Program-made: the position numbers and the translations under genes | Notes under the pieces: generated by a model | The model's input: only the letters and a program-made list of their open reading frames with translations | Told to the model about the DNA's origin: nothing | The model's database searches: none | Part shown: positions 41,265-49,724 of the stretch, one piece after another | How the letters are laid out: each line of letters begins with the position of its first letter | Numbering within the stretch: the first letter of the stretch is position 1 | Origin: Alphaproteobacteria bacterium | Lineage (GTDB): Bacteria; Pseudomonadota; Alphaproteobacteria; GCA-2731375 | Reading direction: 5' to 3' | DNA length: 64,000 nucleotides | Assembly: GCA_965232515.1 (NCBI GenBank) | Contig: CBDDPY010000002.1 | Location: 32,001-96,000, forward strand

Positions 41265-41391
41265 CCCTCACCCCAACCCTCTCCCGCAAGCGGGAGAGGG
41301 GGCCGCCACCGCGGCGGTTTGTTGCCCCTCTCCCGCTTGCGGGAGAGGGAGGGACCCGCGCGACGGCAGTCGCGTGGGAGGGTGAGGGCTA
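41265..41391. repeat. REP-like pair, family B, between convergent genes
   Basis: CCCTCACCCCAACCCTCTCCCGCAAGCGGGAGAGGG at 41265-41302 and an inverted long form at 41325-41391. Confidence 0.85.
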
Positions 41392-42327
41392 CGGCGTCGC
41401 CGCTTCTCCAACCCCCGCCTCACTCGGCAGCTTGTCCGGGTTCAGCACCGCGGCGATGCCCTGGATGCGGCCGTCGGCCATATCGAAGGCGAAGCTGGCG
41501 AACAGCACGCCGTCGATATGCACCAGCATGCCGGGCTCGGTGTTGATCCGGGCCCGTGTCCAGGTCGTGCCGGGCGGCGCCTTCTTCATCAGGCCGAGCA
41601 GGAAGCGCGCCACCTTGTCCGCGCCGCGTACCACGTTGAGCGCCGCTTTCGCCTTGCCGCCGCCGTCGCTGGTGATGGCGATGTCGTCGGTGAACAGCGC
41701 CAGCAGGCCATTGAGGTCGGCTTGCTCGCAGGCCGCCATGAATTGATCCCGCAGGCGCACGCGCTCGGCGTCGCTGACCTCGAAGCGCGGCCGGCCGGCA
41801 TGCACCCGGTCGCGGGCGCGCTTGACGATCTGCCGGCTGTTGGTGGCGCTGGTCTCCAGCACACCGGCGATCTCATCGTGGCCGTAATCGAACACGTCGT
41901 GCAGCAGGAACGCCGCGCGTTCGCGCGGGTTCAACGTTTCCAGCACCATCAGCAGCGCCATCGACAAGGCTTCCGCCGTCTCCAGCCGCGCCACGGCCTG
42001 CTCGCTGTCGTCGACCAGCAGCGGCTCCGGCAGCCAGGGCCCGACATAGCTCTCCCGCCGCACCCGGGCCGAGCGCAGATGGTCGATGCAGAGCCGGGTC
42101 AGCGTCGTCGTCAACCAGGCCGGCGCCGCCGCGGGCTCGGCCAGCTCGGCCCGGTGCCAGCGCAGATAGGTCTCCTGCACCATATCCTCGGCCTCGCTCA
42201 GGCTGCCGAGCATGCGGTAGGCGATGCCGACGAGGCGCGGCCGCTGCGCCTCGAACGCGGCCGCCTTGCCGGCGGCGCCCGTCGCCGCGTCAGACCTCGA
42301 AGGCGTATCGCTGACAGCTCTGCCCAT
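41389..42327 (-). CDS. ECF sigma factor, SigJ/ECF41 type with SnoaL-like C-terminus
   Basis: AYRMLGS..EAED, YVGPWLPEP and DGGGK motifs. Confidence 0.93.
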   Translation of the reverse strand: MGRAVSDTPSRSDAATGAAGKAAAFEAQRPRLVGIAYRMLGSLSEAEDMVQETYLRWHRAELAEPAAAPAWLTTTLTRLCIDHLRSARVRRESYVGPWLPEPLLVDDSEQAVARLETAEALSMALLMVLETLNPRERAAFLLHDVFDYGHDEIAGVLETSATNSRQIVKRARDRVHAGRPRFEVSDAERVRLRDQFMAACEQADLNGLLALFTDDIAITSDGGGKAKAALNVVRGADKVARFLLGLMKKAPPGTTWTRARINTEPGMLVHIDGVLFASFAFDMADGRIQGIAAVLNPDKLPSEAGVGEAATP

Positions 42328-42805
42328 GGCCCATGACCCGTTTCACGATCGGAAACACCTGCGCGCCGGCAATGGCGAAGGCGAGATCGACGATCGCCGC
42401 GCCACCGTAGCGCGCCGCCAGCGCCTCGCGCAATTCGTCGGCTCGCGGATCCTTGTCGACAATGGCCCGCGCGAACAGGTAAGCCTCGGTCAGCTCGTCC
42501 GGCAGGCATTCCGGCCGCTCGTCGATCACCGCACGCAGGACGTCGGCCGGCACCTCGTCCTTTCGCGCCTGGTTCAGGACGATCTGCACGCAGGGCCCGC
42601 AATCCTGCGCCAAGGACGCCACCAGGCGGGCGACGTGCAGGACCGGCTTCGGCACCGATTTGCGGTGGGCCGCGAAGGGCAGGAACAGCCCGAACTTGAA
42701 CAAAGCCGCCGGCGACGCGCGGTAGATGTCGCGCAGGTAATCGGCGGATTCGCCGAGCTCCGCCTCCGTCGCCCGGATGCTGCGCTCAACCATGGCCGAA
42801 ATCAT
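42290..42805 (-). CDS. AhpD / carboxymuconolactone decarboxylase-like protein
   Basis: DCGPC CxxC motif in a helical protein; overlaps the start of the ECF41 gene, the usual ECF41 context. Confidence 0.7.
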   Translation of the reverse strand: MISAMVERSIRATEAELGESADYLRDIYRASPAALFKFGLFLPFAAHRKSVPKPVLHVARLVASLAQDCGPCVQIVLNQARKDEVPADVLRAVIDERPECLPDELTEAYLFARAIVDKDPRADELREALAARYGGAAIVDLAFAIAGAQVFPIVKRVMGHGQSCQRYAFEV

Positions 42806-42915
42806 GTCTCTTCTCCCGTCTTCAACGAATTCATCGCCACCGGCCGGCGGCGCGTAGCCGGCCGTTGCGTGTAAGACGAGATGGCGGGATGGGACGTGAC
42901 AGAGTGACCGCAACC

Positions 42916-43001
42916 TGGATTGCCGGGTCAAGCCCGGCAATGACGGTTTTGGTTTTACATCAATGCCTTATCGTCATGCCCGGGCTTGACCCGGGCATCC
43001 A
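42916..43001. repeat. REP-like pair, family A
   Basis: TGGATTGCCGGGTCAAGCCCGGCAATGACG at 42916-42945 and CGTCATGCCCGGGCTTGACCCGGGCATCCA at 42972-43001. Confidence 0.88.
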
Positions 43002-43042: not shown

Positions 43043-43687
43043 CTAATTCAACAGCGACGGGCCGTCGGCGTTTTCGATGTAGCGGATCAGCGGGATCCAG
43101 TCGCTCTGCATGGCGGCGGCCTGGCGGTTGCGCAGGTCGAAGATGCTCAGGCCCTGCCAGGCGACCTCGTTATAGATGCTGCGATCGGTCAGCCAACCAA
43201 CGTCGCGGGCGCTGGTGTCCTGGATGAAGCTGTCGAGCCGGGCGGCGGCGCGGGAGCCCCGGCGCACCCGGTTGCGGACCAGCGCGAAGGGCTTGCGGTT
43301 GCGCCGGATCGGCTTCAGCTCGCGCAGCTTGGCGAGGAACATCTCGGTCGACGACTGGTCGAAGGCCGACGGCAGCACCGGCACGACAATGACGTCGGCC
43401 CGCCGCACCAGCTCGCGGATCTGCTTCAGCCGGCTCGAGCCGGCCGAGTCGATCACCAGGCGCGCGATGTCCTTGGGCGCGTCCGACATCTGCTTCACCC
43501 AATCCAGGCCGACGATCGGCGCCGCCGAGTCCGGCCGTGCGTCCAGCCAGCCGAGGCAGGAGCGCTGGCGGTCCGTGTCGGCCAACGCCGTGCGCAGGCC
43601 GCCATTGGCGAAGGCCGCGGCCAGGTGTGTCGCGATGGTGGTCTTGCCGCATCCGCCTTTCGGATTGGCGACCAGGACGGAGATCAC
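43043..43687 (-). CDS. Small ParA-family ATPase without N-terminal HTH
   Basis: Deviant Walker A KGGCGKTT, DTDRQRS, VIDS and PVLPS.FD motifs. Confidence 0.92.
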   Translation of the reverse strand: MISVLVANPKGGCGKTTIATHLAAAFANGGLRTALADTDRQRSCLGWLDARPDSAAPIVGLDWVKQMSDAPKDIARLVIDSAGSSRLKQIRELVRRADVIVVPVLPSAFDQSSTEMFLAKLRELKPIRRNRKPFALVRNRVRRGSRAAARLDSFIQDTSARDVGWLTDRSIYNEVAWQGLSIFDLRNRQAAAMQSDWIPLIRYIENADGPSLLN

Positions 43688-43691
43688 GTTG

Positions 43692-45293
43692 TCAGGTCCC
43701 CTGTCGGTGCTGTTGCCAGAACGGCTTCGTGCCCACGAACCGGTGCCAGTCGCCGGCGATCCGCGGCCGCACCGCTTCCAGCGCCTGTGCGTACCAACCC
43801 AGCACCAGCCCGGCGCCTGTGGTCAGCGTGCCGAGACTGTTGCTGCTGCCGGTATCGGTGAGTCCGCGCAGCCGGACCTCGGCGACGGCGACATCGTTCA
43901 GATGGCCGAGATCGTCCTGCAGCTGGCGCAGCGCCTTGATATAGGGTTTGCTGCGCTTCTTGGCGTATAGCGAGGCAAAGAATTCAGCGGCATATCGCAG
44001 TTTCTTCAAGGCGATGCGCAGCTCGTGCAAGGCCTCGTCCGAGAGGTGCTTGAACCGCCGGCCCAGCTTCATCGCGGTCTTGTGGCGCTTCTGCAGCAGC
44101 CGGTCGGCGAGCTCGATCAGCGGCCGTTCCAGCTCGGCCGCCGATTGATGATTGCGCCAGCCATAGCCCTCGAGCCAGGCATTGAACTCCAGCACGAAGG
44201 CGGTATAGCGCGGCGATTGCAGCGCCGCCCGGGCGCGCTCGTAGCCGGACCGCCGCGCGTCCTCGACCGCGTCGCGCAAGGCCTTGAGATCGCTGTCGTC
44301 GGGCCGCGCGTCGATGACGGGTTGCAGCAGTTCGTCGCTGAACACATCCCAGTCGCGCGCCGCGCCCAGGTCGCCGATCAGCGCCTTCGCCTCCGTCTGC
44401 AGCCAGGTGGCGTCGTCCGGCGACAGCACGCCCTTGAACAGCGAGAGCGCCGAGCGCAGCCGGCGCAGCGCGACCCGCATCTGGTGCACGCCTTCCGGAT
44501 CGCTGCCGTCCAGCACGGCGGCGTGGTTGGCGAGCCAGTGCTGGCCGCATGCGTGGAACACCCGGCCCATGGCCGCGTCCAGCGTCACGTCGGGCGCCAG
44601 GTCTAGCCCGTTGGCCCGGTTGCCGAGATGGCGTTGCGTGGCGGCCAGCGCATAGCCGCGGGCGGCCTTGCTGACGGTCTCGATCTGCAGCGGTGTCTTC
44701 GCGTGCAAAGCGGCGGCGAAGGCATAGAGCGCTTGCGGCGCGCCTTCCAGCAGCTCGAACTCCATCTCGGAGATCGGCTCGCGGGTATCGTCGGTTCGGA
44801 TCTCGCCGCGGTCCAGCGCGACCTCGATCACCGCGCGCGGCTTGCCGCGTCCCGACGTGGTGACCGTTTTGATCCGCCGCGTCACATCGGTCGTGAACAC
44901 CGGCGCGAGTTCGCTCGGCAGGATCAGGCCCAGTCGTTCGAGCACGTCGGCGTCGTCGATCTTCGACAGATCCGGCGACAGGGATGGCACCGGCACCGAC
45001 CATTCGCCGCGCGCCATCAATCCGGCCGCGCCGCCGTTATCCGCCTTCAGCGTCTGGACCAGGCCCTTGCCGTTCTGCCGGATGCGCAGCGTGAACCCCT
45101 TGCGCTGCAGCCGCAGGTCGGATGTGTCGAAATAGGTTGAGACGAGATGTTGTTCCGATACCCGTCCCCGGCCACCGAGATGGGCCCGCCAGGCCGTATC
45201 CAGCGTCTCAGGCCGACCCCCGAGTTTCAGTTCGATTTCCAGATTGTAGGCCGCCGTCCCATCCCCCGACGCACCTTGTTCCGATGACCTCAC
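43692..45293 (-). CDS. CYTH plus CHAD domain protein (YgiF-like triphosphatase / polyphosphate-binding)
   Basis: EIELK, YFDT, LRIR, ALDRG and SKAARGY (CYTH); VHQMRVALRRLRS, LHELRIALKKLRY and LQDDLGHLND (CHAD). Confidence 0.92.
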   Translation of the reverse strand: MRSSEQGASGDGTAAYNLEIELKLGGRPETLDTAWRAHLGGRGRVSEQHLVSTYFDTSDLRLQRKGFTLRIRQNGKGLVQTLKADNGGAAGLMARGEWSVPVPSLSPDLSKIDDADVLERLGLILPSELAPVFTTDVTRRIKTVTTSGRGKPRAVIEVALDRGEIRTDDTREPISEMEFELLEGAPQALYAFAAALHAKTPLQIETVSKAARGYALAATQRHLGNRANGLDLAPDVTLDAAMGRVFHACGQHWLANHAAVLDGSDPEGVHQMRVALRRLRSALSLFKGVLSPDDATWLQTEAKALIGDLGAARDWDVFSDELLQPVIDARPDDSDLKALRDAVEDARRSGYERARAALQSPRYTAFVLEFNAWLEGYGWRNHQSAAELERPLIELADRLLQKRHKTAMKLGRRFKHLSDEALHELRIALKKLRYAAEFFASLYAKKRSKPYIKALRQLQDDLGHLNDVAVAEVRLRGLTDTGSSNSLGTLTTGAGLVLGWYAQALEAVRPRIAGDWHRFVGTKPFWQQHRQGT

Positions 45294-45329
45294 AAGCCTG
45301 TCCCGCGACCCTCGTACGATGCCCGATGT

Positions 45330-45399
45330 TTATTCGGATCAGCATATCCGAATAATTGTAATTTTTCTGCAACATTTCTTTCGTAAATCTGTCATTTAA
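45330..45399. promoter_or_regulatory. AT-rich regulatory region: 10-bp inverted repeat plus 11-bp-periodic Pho-box-like units
   Basis: TTATTCGGAT-N6-ATCCGAATAA at 45330-45355; TTGTAAT, CTGCAAC, CTTTCGT and CTGTCAT starting at 45356, 45367, 45378 and 45389. Confidence 0.5.
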
Positions 45400-45493
45400 C
45401 GTGAATACTCTGAAATGTTGCGCGCGCAAAGTAACATCGGTCTGCGGCGAAGTAAACCGACCGAACTTCTGATGTAAAAATGGCGTGTGGAGA

Positions 45494-47182
<1,689 letters not shown>

Positions 47183-47286
47183 CGTTGGCCTGTGCTCAGA
47201 TGGTCCGGTTCCCCGGCGCGTCCTTATCTGCCAGAAACGGCGTCCCACGCCAAGTCACGCATTGCCTTTGGCCGCAAAACGCAATT

Positions 47287-47484
47287 CCCTCTCCCCCCGC
47301 TTGCGGGGGGAGAGGGCAGGGTGAGGGGGGAACCGCGCGCAGCGCGCTTCACTGCACAACCACTGCTGAAATCAAGAAAATGCCGGGGAATACAGTTTAG
47401 TCGACGTCTACATCTGTAGCCCTCACCCTCCCACGCGACTGTTGTCGCGCGGGCCCCTCCCTCTCCCGCAGGCGGGAGAGGGGG
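47287..47484. repeat. Two REP-like elements, family B
   Basis: Short form at 47287-47330; long form at 47417-47484, nearly the exact reverse complement of 41325-41391. Confidence 0.85.
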
Positions 47485-47588
47485 TATTTGGCCGCGATCG
47501 ACCGTCGGCAGCGGATCGCGGCCGATTTCGGCTATGGTCTGCCCGACCCTTGATGCGAGTTCCCAACAACCCGAAAAGGCTTACCGGT

Positions 47589-48050
47589 ATGCAGAATAGC
47601 GAGTCGGGAGATCAGGTCGAGGCCAGGCTGCTCGACGTGATTGCGCGGGCGGACACCGACTTCCTCGCGCAGGACTATGCCTGGGCGCCGCTCGCGGCCG
47701 GCGCCGGCCCGCGCGACGACGCGCTCGCCTGCGTCCGCGACAAGGACGCCTGGCACGAATTCGTGCCGGCCGGACCCGACGACGATCCGGCGCGCCGGTT
47801 CCGCGTGGTCTGTTTCCGCTTCGCCGAGGGGCCCAGCGCGGCCGGCTTCGTCGGCTGGCTGCACACGCATCTGCGCGTTTCGGGTCGCACCGGCGCCATC
47901 GTCATCTGCGGCAAGGACCGGCGCGATTCCGACGCGCTGTTCCAGGTCTGCCAGGGCGTCATGGACTACTGGGCCTGCCCGCTACCGGCGGCCGACCGCT
48001 TCCTCGACGTCATCCGGTCGCTGATCGAGAAGGGGCAGGCGGCGCGGTGA
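47589..48050 (+). CDS. Hypothetical protein (DUF6196-like)
   Basis: DALACVRD, GFVGWL and DYWACP pattern; family assignment from memory. Confidence 0.6.
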   Translation: MQNSESGDQVEARLLDVIARADTDFLAQDYAWAPLAAGAGPRDDALACVRDKDAWHEFVPAGPDDDPARRFRVVCFRFAEGPSAAGFVGWLHTHLRVSGRTGAIVICGKDRRDSDALFQVCQGVMDYWACPLPAADRFLDVIRSLIEKGQAAR

Positions 48051-48833: not shown

Positions 48834-49724
48834 ATGAACGACATCGACTGGCACCACCACTTCGCCGAAGTCAACGGCATCGCCATGCACTATGTGCGGC
48901 ATGGGCAGGGCATGCCGATCGTGCTGCTGCACGGCTGGCCGGAATTCTGGTTCACCTGGCACAAGGTGATCCCGACGCTCGCGCGCTCGTTCCAAGTCAT
49001 CGCGCCCGACCTGCGCGGGTTCGGCCAGAGCGACAAGCCGCCAGGCGCGGCGCTGGAGGCCTATACGCTCGACCACCATGTCGACGACCTGGCCGCGCTC
49101 GCGGATGCGCTCGACCTCGATCGGTTCGGCATCGTCAGCCACGACGTCGGCGCCATGGTTGCTCAGGGCTATGCACGTCGGGCGCCGGAGCGCCTTGCCG
49201 GCCTGTTCTTCTTCAACCTGCCCTATGCCGGCGTCGGCGGCCGCTGGTCCGAGCCTGAGCACCTGAACGAGGTCTGGTACCAGGGCTTCAACCAACAGTC
49301 CTGGGCCGCCGATCTGATCGGCGCCAGCCGCGAAAACATCCGCATCTATTTCGGCAACATGCTGGCGCACTGGGCGCACGATCCGCACGCCTTCGATGAC
49401 GATCTCGAGATCTGGGTCGACAATTTCGCCGCGCCCGGCAACCTGCAGGGCGGCTTCAACTGGTACAGTGCCATCTTCCCGCAGCGCCTTGCCATCATGC
49501 GCGGCGATCTGCCGCCGCAGCCGCCGATCGCGGTGCCCACCAAGGTTCGCTGGGGCCGGTACGATCCGGTGATGCGCATCGACTTCGCCGACAGGCTGCC
49601 GGACTACTTCACCGACCTCGACTTCGCGCCGGCGCCGGAGGCCGGCCATTTCGTCCAGTACGAGCGCCCGGCCTACGCCGCCGCCGAGATCACCACATTC
49701 TTCGAGGCCTTAAGGGCGGACTGA
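48834..49724 (+). CDS. Alpha/beta hydrolase (epoxide hydrolase / haloacetate dehalogenase type)
   Basis: HGWPE, APDLRGFG, SHDVG (Asp nucleophile) and AGHF motifs. Confidence 0.92.
   Translation: MNDIDWHHHFAEVNGIAMHYVRHGQGMPIVLLHGWPEFWFTWHKVIPTLARSFQVIAPDLRGFGQSDKPPGAALEAYTLDHHVDDLAALADALDLDRFGIVSHDVGAMVAQGYARRAPERLAGLFFFNLPYAGVGGRWSEPEHLNEVWYQGFNQQSWAADLIGASRENIRIYFGNMLAHWAHDPHAFDDDLEIWVDNFAAPGNLQGGFNWYSAIFPQRLAIMRGDLPPQPPIAVPTKVRWGRYDPVMRIDFADRLPDYFTDLDFAPAPEAGHFVQYERPAYAAAEITTFFEALRAD

Follow-up and report, generated by a model that had tools for sequence, protein, structure and literature searches.

A conserved CYTH-CHAD and ParA gene pair in Alphaproteobacteria, a candidate ParA-type system for polyphosphate granules

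On what does a ParA-type ATPase act when its gene adjoins that of a CYTH-CHAD protein and no ParB is encoded nearby? We considered this question for a locus in a stretch of 64,000 nucleotides (nt) of an alphaproteobacterial genome (GenBank assembly GCA_965232515.1, contig CBDDPY010000002.1, positions 32,001 to 96,000 of the forward strand), the whole of which is referred to below as the window. The two genes and the interval between them are as follows.

43692..45293, minus strand: CYTH-CHAD gene, GTG start, 533 amino acids (aa), called from its open reading frame (ORF) and Pfam; proposed to encode a partner bound to polyphosphate (polyP) granules
43043..43687, minus strand: gene for a ParF-like ATPase of the ParA/MinD family, GTG start, 214 aa, without a helix-turn-helix (HTH); called from its ORF and Pfam
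43688-43691, minus strand: 4-nt spacer from the CYTH-CHAD stop (43692-43694) to the ParA GTG (43685-43687), a tight coupling

A first-pass annotation of this DNA had described the CYTH-CHAD stop as lying 4 nt from the GTG of a 214-aa ParA, and the ORF coordinates agree. Its end coordinate for the locus, 45399, does span the gene pair and in addition takes in 106 nt of the intergenic region upstream of the CYTH-CHAD start. By the ORF list and Pfam, CYTH-CHAD is the sole operon partner of ParA in the window. The gap from the 3' end of the ParA gene to the next gene is 102 nt, and because the flanking gaps are only 4 nt upstream and 102 nt downstream, room for a third small gene is excluded. We propose, as a reading to which we give an even chance, that the pair is a two-protein ParA/MinD-type system acting on polyP granules, with CYTH-CHAD as the granule-bound partner and granule positioning as its presumed task.

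The first evidence for this proposal is the conservation of gene order. A ParA search using one genome per species returned 80 loci. The 21 closest are alphaproteobacterial and show 46-64% identity; one of them (L026) is cut at a contig end, leaving 20 evaluable, of which 16 have CYTH-CHAD as the immediate upstream gene on the same strand and four do not. The remaining 59 loci, from gamma- and betaproteobacteria and Nitrospirota, show 34-41% identity; neither tblastn, nor Pfam on the upstream gene, nor a custom CYTH-CHAD hidden Markov model found a CHAD in their flanks, although that model, made from sequences of Alphaproteobacteria, may overlook highly divergent CHADs. Seven of 60 relatives of the window genome carry the ParA, five of them as the pair. 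Across the pairs measured, the gap between the two genes ranges from -7 to +75 nt (19 nt at locus L019), and six further pairs overlap by 4 nt.

The phylogeny of the ATPase agrees with this arrangement. All CHAD-linked rows of a 92-row ParA tree, 22 of the 88 that belong to the family, fall into one alphaproteobacterial clade of 29 rows, with a Shimodaira-Hasegawa-like approximate likelihood ratio test (SH-aLRT) support of 87. Six unlinked rows nest within this clade, a placement that fits a secondary separation of the pair. The ParA and partner trees also share subclades, one uniting the window and L088 with L006, L007 and L010, another made up of L008, L009, L020 and L021, and this congruence fits inheritance of the two genes as a unit. 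Since the order of the genes is conserved across genomes, their adjacency exceeds what chance would produce, and it is well supported that the CYTH-CHAD and ParA genes form a genuine functional unit, with translational coupling in many families of the Alphaproteobacteria. A named cultured carrier is Pelagibius marinus NBU2595 (locus L009).

Co-occurrence of this ParA clade with CHAD, which the first-pass annotation had suggested examining, proved complete among the carriers. In a class sample of 401 genomes, each at least 90% complete, the clade (called at E up to 1e-30) is present in 26 and Pfam CHAD in 150, the CHAD counts including genome G242, which is flagged unpublished. CHAD is encoded in 26 of 26 carriers vs 124 of 375 non-carriers, and in the relatives sample in 8 of 8 ParA carriers vs 7 of 53 others, contrasts in which significance is overstated because related genomes are not independent. 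In one genus represented by 21 genomes, ParA and CHAD both occur in the same single genome. CHAD stands directly upstream of ParA in 16 of the 26 class-sample carriers, 13 new loci being confirmed in this way.

At the level of the phylum, a clade profile matched 47 of 401 genomes. None of the 32 strongest non-alphaproteobacterial loci, a set that does not take in 18 weaker matches (E 1e-30 to 1e-25), has a CYTH-CHAD within 3.5 kb, and a Pfam CHAD search of five of the non-alphaproteobacterial genomes found CHAD elsewhere in four, in one of them 4.3 kb from the ParA, and none in the fifth. CHAD linkage in the sister ParA clades was thus rejected, at 0 of 59 and 0 of 32 loci. Upstream of the sister-clade orphan ParAs (L027-L085, L146-L177) certain genes recur, with variation: UbiD in about 10 cases, ScpB in about 8, UbiA in about 7, DapF in 6 and phosphoribulokinase in 4. 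One non-alphaproteobacterial genome (G726:C1:2422875-2428469) has a CHAD gene near a sister-clade ParA, on the same strand and 4.3 kb away, not adjacent.

Some loci of the alphaproteobacterial clade show the pair in other states. At L018 (4355-5996), a frameshift divides the linked CYTH-CHAD, reflecting either a pseudogene or an assembly error in a metagenome-assembled genome, and the two closest relatives of this locus, L013 and L017, have lost the CYTH-CHAD gene. No recurring family was found among ORFs beside the unlinked ParAs of the clade in a Pfam search covering 25 of 53 neighbouring ORFs, the matches including HTH, NUDIX, HU, asparagine synthase and Hsp90. A NUDIX hydrolase gene at L011:6646-7071 (minus strand) is convergent with an unlinked clade ParA.

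What the upstream protein might contribute can be read from its two domains.

44652..45242, minus strand: CYTH (triphosphate tunnel) domain, residues 18-214; Pfam 78.6 bits (cut-off 23.2), 6.6e-22
43866..44561, minus strand: CHAD domain, residues 245-476; Pfam 225 bits (cut-off 25.6), 1.6e-66

The AlphaFold2 model of the protein (mean pLDDT, the predicted local distance difference test, 90.7) shows CYTH as a beta-barrel and CHAD as helices, the helical CHAD fold extending to about residue 521. An EIELKL motif at residues 19-24 (E19-I-E21-L-K23) provides the N-terminal ExExK signature. Among 32 linked homologues, conservation is 90% or more at the CYTH residues E19, R70, R72, K83, E176 and E178, and the CHAD residues H270, R273, R277, H423, R426, K430 and R433 are invariant. 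The best match in the PDB is full-length E. coli YgiF (5a60, E 3.5e-21), the structure 7ns9 of a triphosphate tunnel metalloenzyme also matches, and the CHAD domain, which has the fold of two four-helix bundles typical of its family, superimposes on 6qv5 and on the CHAD-polyP complex 6qva with a template modelling (TM) score of 0.85 of the target. Judged from sequence and model, the window protein belongs to the CYTH/triphosphate tunnel metalloenzymes and carries a CHAD polyphosphate-binding domain, so named; polyP binding and granule localization would themselves follow by homology. In a study of other CHAD proteins, CHAD is reported to bind polyP and not single-stranded DNA or RNA, CHAD proteins sit on granules, and overexpression of a CHAD protein shifts the granules (PMC6537752). 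A C-terminal GW...W..F...PFW pattern in CYTH-CHAD was considered as a ParA-recruiting motif and rejected, since unlinked CHADs have it too.

The downstream protein has the sequence and fold hallmarks of a ParA/MinD ATPase.

43640..43666, minus strand: deviant Walker A, residues 8-16, NPKGGCGKT, with the signature lysine K10 and K15; identified from the sequence

In 32 clade sequences, K10, G11, G12, G14 and K15 of Walker A are invariant, as are D39 and D80 of Walker A' and B. Pfam returned MipZ, CbiA and AAA_31 only, in agreement with the first-pass annotation that the protein lacks an HTH. By sequence, its nearest PDB entry is ParF (4dzz, E 1.9e-13). The model (pLDDT 92.3) matches best the folds of TP228 ParA/ParF (5u1g, 4e07; TM about 0.8), followed by Synechocystis ParA (3cwq) and MipZ, with McdA (6non/6nop) at a TM of about 0.73; the top 50 PDB matches comprise ParF, ParA, MipZ, MinD, Soj, McdA and FlhG together with NifH-like proteins (such as BchL and the nitrogenase Fe protein). 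Motifs and predicted fold together identify the window ParA as a ParA/MinD deviant Walker A ATPase. A basic patch had also been reported for it, and RRNRK and RNRVRRGSR are indeed found at residues 128-146; the second stretch, however, overlaps N139-R140, which is invariant in the clade, and RNRVRRGSR is by alignment partly a clade-wide feature.

Do the two proteins meet? The first-pass annotation had proposed a structure prediction of the pair, and this yielded a predicted direct contact between ParA and CYTH-CHAD, with the controls passed. Complexes were predicted at 1:1 without nucleotide from our own alignments (32 rows each), in three runs and with three controls. The interface score ipSAE (interaction prediction score from aligned errors), which is the model's own confidence and no measure of binding, was 0.66, 0.65 and 0.66 for the pair and 0.00, 0.00 and 0.05 for the controls. 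On calibration, 116 of 157 solved complexes came up to this mark, as did 2 of 215 mismatched pairs, figures that are only a rough guide for our own alignments. The partner pLDDT was at least 79, and at least 94% of the contacts were common to the runs. We know of no solved ParA-CYTH complex. The segments predicted to touch are listed here.

44910..44969, minus strand: CYTH residues 109-128, a helical insert that contains G122-L-I-L-P126 and is predicted in the complex model to bind ParA
43592..43615, minus strand: ParA residues 25-32 (end of helix 1 and loop), predicted contact of the CYTH insert in the complex model, with L31 as the key residue
43073..43117, minus strand: ParA residues 191-205 (two C-terminal helices, DWxPLIRYIE), predicted contact of the CYTH insert in the complex and ParA models

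In the model, the insert consists of short helices between strands E94-101 and E130-148, with L123 as the contact hub, and ParA residues 73-76 also take part in the predicted interface. The residues concerned were compared using sequences outside the model's input. Of 31 linked partners with a CYTH domain, 22 carry the motif G[LVMTI][ILV][ILV][PA] at positions 122-126; it is found in 0 of 26 unlinked CYTH-CHADs, a set from which E. coli YgiF is absent. On the ParA side, a hydrophobic residue (L/F/I/V/M) stands at position 31 in 31 of 35 linked proteins and in 4 of 13 unlinked members of the clade. All 35 linked proteins have R76, vs 7 of the 13 unlinked ones and 13 of 91 sister-clade rows, and at position 198 a hydrophobic residue or Ala is found in 27 of the 35 linked vs 1 of the 13 unlinked proteins. 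In the unlinked ParAs L011, L022, L089 and L092, which nest among linked ones, L31 is replaced in all four and R76 in three. The trend between these residues and linkage almost never reverses across phylogenetically independent contrasts.

In a CYTH-CHAD tree of 61 rows, the linked copies group together (6 label changes vs a shuffled mean of 20.6, with 0 of 500 shuffles as low). A single clean clade does not result, and support for the backbone of the tree is weak. The window genome encodes a second CYTH-CHAD at 4.41 Mb (G000:C2:4411474-4412166; L087, L095) that is 39% identical to the window copy. No ParA was found in the 10 kb around this paralogue, which lacks the GLILP insert motif and groups with the unlinked CHAD types. 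Several further carrier genomes hold two or three CHAD genes.

From these elements a mechanism can be sketched. CYTH-CHAD would sit on the granule surface through binding of polyP by its CHAD domain, as established for other CHADs and suggested here by the conserved His and basic residues. In the complex model, CYTH insert 109-128, with L123 of GLILP, would dock into a hydrophobic groove of ParA formed by A25, F26, L31, R76 and residues 191-205. With its Walker A, A' and B motifs intact, ParA would form ATP-dependent dimers and, as the analogous McdA and ParF suggest, would attach to a matrix, probably the nucleoid, so that granules are spaced, anchored or partitioned at division. The first-pass annotation had already cast CYTH-CHAD as an adaptor and ParA as the distributor of granules. 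The conserved unit and the predicted contact speak in part for that idea; the contact was placed on the CYTH domain, and the basic N-terminal peptide by which such a partner might act was not found. The more specific version, a dedicated, ATP-driven machine for spacing and partitioning polyP granules that recruits ParA in a new way, through the CYTH insert at the helix 1/C-terminal face and not through a basic peptide at the dimer interface, we put forward tentatively, at slightly less than an even chance.

Several observations weigh against this proposal, beginning with the nature of the complex score given above. The insert motif is absent from 9 of the 31 linked partners (L091, L094, L105, L108, L110, L113, L115, L117 and another), and at L109 (G213:C1:756495-757763) the ParA-linked partner is CHAD-only, without CYTH. 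Because nine linked partners lack the motif and L109 lacks CYTH, the contact may be specific to the main linked lineage, the window included. The association of interface residues with linkage comprises only 4-6 phylogenetically independent contrasts, for which sign tests gave p values from 0.25 to 1, not significant. ParA and CHAD are apart in 9 of the 26 class-sample carriers, with one more at contig ends that could not be placed, and in the 61-row tree the second paralogues and most CHADs from unlinked-ParA genomes fall with the ordinary types. Most CHAD genomes do not have this ParA, which makes the system an accessory module; since 124 of 375 non-carriers have CHAD, it is dispensable for polyP granules in general. 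In the window genome, no ppk or ppx gene lies beside the pair: an adjacent ppk1/ppx is found at 1.77 Mb and ppk2 at 3.44 Mb (contig C2), and there is a second Ppx/GppA. These genes equip the genome for polyP synthesis, a point in favour of the proposal. Deletion of CHAD genes in R. eutropha, or of ygiF, gave no apparent phenotype (PMC6537752).

The remaining points against the proposal concern catalysis. In ParF, a helix of ParG activates ATP hydrolysis at a dimer-interface pocket near P109 and V149 (PMC5393062). When mapped through a collinear alignment of residues 6-187 with ParF residues 6-187, the predicted contact lies away from this activation site. No ParA-recruiting N-terminal peptide was found in CYTH-CHAD, in which the N-terminal extensions are short and unconserved and contain no conserved basic peptide. 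The models therefore offer no predicted basis for stimulation of the ParA ATPase by CYTH-CHAD. Because the contact is off the ParG site and a conserved basic peptide is lacking, stimulation would have to come from elsewhere, or CYTH-CHAD would serve as a tether or remodeller.

This leads to a different account, in which the pair acts on polyP as an assembly or remodelling factor and does not position granules on the nucleoid: a ParA dimer would bind polyP or bridge two CYTH-CHADs, and ATP turnover would set granule number, size, fusion or access of the CYTH domain. The gene association and the interface evidence apply to it equally, and a contact away from the ParF activator site fits tethering or scaffolding. 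DNA binding by ParA-type proteins involves basic residues on phosphates (PMC5393062), which would make polyP a plausible alternative ligand, and the CHAD domain of YgiF stimulates its triphosphatase (PMC6537752). Against this, the fold and motifs of the window ParA are those of ordinary matrix-binding ParF-like proteins. No ParA/MinD member is known to use polyP as its matrix, no search aimed at this having been made. We consider this account unlikely, at roughly one chance in four, and retain the two-protein system acting on granules as the preferred reading.

The position of the predicted contact on CYTH, and not on CHAD, also bears on whether granules are involved at all. The CYTH domain could hydrolyse or cyclise a triphosphate or nucleotide signal, with ParA regulating or localizing this enzyme, or ParA could move some other cargo; the conservation of catalytic-type CYTH residues and the separation of polyP enzyme genes from the pair in this genome are in keeping with either. 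On the other hand, CHAD is the constant element of the association, being found by Pfam in all 26 carriers and standing by itself in the CHAD-only partner at L109; its invariant His and basic residues are retained, and a CHAD-polyP structure is among the matches of the model. That the function has nothing to do with granules is, in our estimate, improbable. A granule-directed role of the pair hence remains the one we prefer.

Could the ParA instead be a leftover plasmid or chromosome partition gene, or part of an anti-phage ParA-effector module, that merely stands beside CHAD? Its closest solved relative is the plasmid protein ParF, it scores 119 bits against the NCBIfam equivalog NF041546 (ParA_partition), and it occurs only here and there among relatives (4 of 32 in the family); ParA-effector immune systems have moreover been described (10.64898/2026.10.19.760177). 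Set against these points, 119 bits is below the 180-bit cut-off of that model, and neither a ParB nor a parS is found nearby, as the first-pass annotation had stated. A ParB_N search gave no match in the window (C2:32001-96000), the five matches of the genome lying at C2:3.70 Mb or beyond or on C1, and a scan of the window for a parS consensus, with up to 3 mismatches, gave 1 match, at 48948, which is chance level (30 of 100 shuffles gave at least one). The pair is thus not a type I partition system (ParABS). PADLOC 2.0 returned a single match for ParA (E 0.0099) and none for CYTH-CHAD, so no known anti-phage system was recognized, and the part of the October 2026 preprint on ParA-effector immunity available (10.64898/2026.10.19.760177) contains 0 mentions of CHAD or CYTH. 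On either side of the pair stand housekeeping or regulatory genes (glnS, one for an ECF sigma factor), the two genes adjoin each other in many families, and the ParA and partner subclades are congruent. A stray partition or defence gene is on this evidence disfavoured and highly improbable. The neighbouring genes upstream are given below.

45494-47248, minus strand: glnS, upstream of CYTH-CHAD
47442-48050, plus strand: gene for a DUF6196 protein (Pfam 100 bits), divergent, upstream of glnS

On the other side of the pair lie a gene for an extracytoplasmic function (ECF)-type sigma factor with a SnoaL-like C-terminal domain (41389-42327, minus strand) and an overlapping ORF (42290-42940, minus strand) that resembles the carboxymuconolactone decarboxylase (CMD) family, the match being weak and under the Pfam cut-off. 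We take this overlap at 41389-42940 to resemble ECF41-type pairs.

How does a granule-directed ParA/CYTH-CHAD pair compare with systems already described? Like McdA of the McdA/McdB carboxysome positioning system, the window ParA is an orphan ParA-type ATPase encoded beside a proposed cargo-bound partner; as for McdA, the cargo would be a non-DNA cytoplasmic body seen over the nucleoid, and the McdA fold is related (6non/6nop, TM about 0.73). In contrast to McdAB, the partner is a folded CYTH-CHAD and no McdB, the neighbours include no carboxysome genes, the ParA, with the signature lysine K10 retained, is nearer ParF (TM about 0.8), and the cargo would be an inorganic polymer granule. A 2026 mBio article describes polyP organization in S. 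elongatus as independent of McdAB and its mechanism as 'yet-to-be-discovered' (PMC13556221). TP228 ParF, of a type Ib plasmid partition system, is the closest solved relative by sequence and fold, both proteins being about 210 aa, without an HTH and with a deviant Walker A; unlike ParF/ParG, the window pair has no centromere-binding partner of the ParG/ParB type and no centromere, and the contact site differs. E. coli YgiF, a tripolyphosphatase, shares the two-domain architecture, and the EIELKL tunnel motif is present in the window protein; the two differ in that identity is about 20% and the window lineage is ParA-linked with the GLILP insert motif. ygiF is not known to have a ParA neighbour.

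In print, AlgP of P. aeruginosa is the only protein that we found described as shaping polyP granule spacing (PMC9239181). It is histone H1-like, DNA-binding, disordered and Lys-rich, is not an ATPase and has no homology to either protein of the window pair. A paper on Acidithiobacillus lists folD, ppk, parA and CHAD as a highly conserved gene group, with ParA glossed as a plasmid partition protein and no role proposed (PMC10892726). There too parA adjoins CHAD; the difference is that ppk is adjacent there and not in the window. The parA-CHAD gene order is accordingly already in print for Acidithiobacillus, without a function in the part of the paper available (PMC10892726). Within the available portions, the AlgP paper (PMC9239181) and a 2025 review (PMC11894788) mention ParA/MinD proteins only for other cargos, and a 2023 survey of ParA/MinD cargos has 0 occurrences of 'polyphosphate' or 'CHAD' (PMC10241942). 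Our literature search, the scope of which did not extend to supplements and most subscription journals, found no publication proposing or testing a ParA-type system for polyP granules, in line with the statement of the first-pass annotation that it knew of no characterized one.

The regions on either side of the pair were inspected for regulatory features.

45294..45493, minus strand: intergenic region between glnS and CYTH-CHAD, the presumed promoter region, from the ORF map
45333-45352, about 40-60 nt upstream of the CYTH-CHAD start: palindrome TTCGGA-N8-TCCGAA, inside an inverted repeat with 10-bp arms (45330-45355)
42976..42998, no strand assigned: GC-rich hairpin ATGCCCGGG-cttga-CCCGGGCAT, 45 nt past the ParA stop; it has no T run and is not called a terminator

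The palindrome is kept in a same-genus genome (G001) and lies upstream of no other CHAD-ParA locus compared, its pattern occurring once more at L099, where CHAD is unlinked; the palindrome is a possible operator. A simple scan found no sigma-70-like promoter upstream of the pair, and a terminator scan gave three terminator-like sites, all on the plus strand and at chance level. A candidate Pho box upstream of the pair at 45378-45395, with 2 mismatches to the consensus CTGTCAT-N4-CTGTCAT, was rejected as a sign of phosphate regulation, being on the opposite strand and absent in the same-genus genome; window-wide there are 2 such matches vs a shuffled mean of 2.72, which is chance.

Downstream, the hairpin at 42976-42998 is likely the end of the unit or an element resembling repetitive extragenic palindromes (REPs). 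The stretch from the ParA stop to the next gene contains a second GC-rich hairpin, at 42915-42945. Many unrelated contigs of RNA libraries share with the hairpins only short pieces of about 30 nt, which have loose ends on both sides, as expected for a dispersed REP-like repeat. RNA-seq contigs 97-98% identical to the window came from two libraries of one study, and two other runs matched a 31-nt repeat only. One 626-nt RNA-library contig spans the gene junction (43225-43850); it was not used as evidence, since a single transcript is not shown and DNA carry-over is possible.

The placement and inheritance of bacterial polyP granules is an open question, for which this pair offers a genetically small and concrete candidate. 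If the proposal is true, it would be the first ParA/MinD system with an inorganic polymer body as cargo, and would extend the cargo list of the family to an inorganic storage body. The GLILP insert, together with ParA L31, R76 and position 198, would then be a specificity code distinguishing the granule-dedicated from the ordinary CYTH-CHAD paralogues of one genome, the predicted key residues being L123 of the partner and L31 and R76 of ParA. Finally, the pair would give CYTH-CHAD proteins a cellular role, a notable outcome, since their deletion had no apparent phenotype in the organisms tested so far (PMC6537752).

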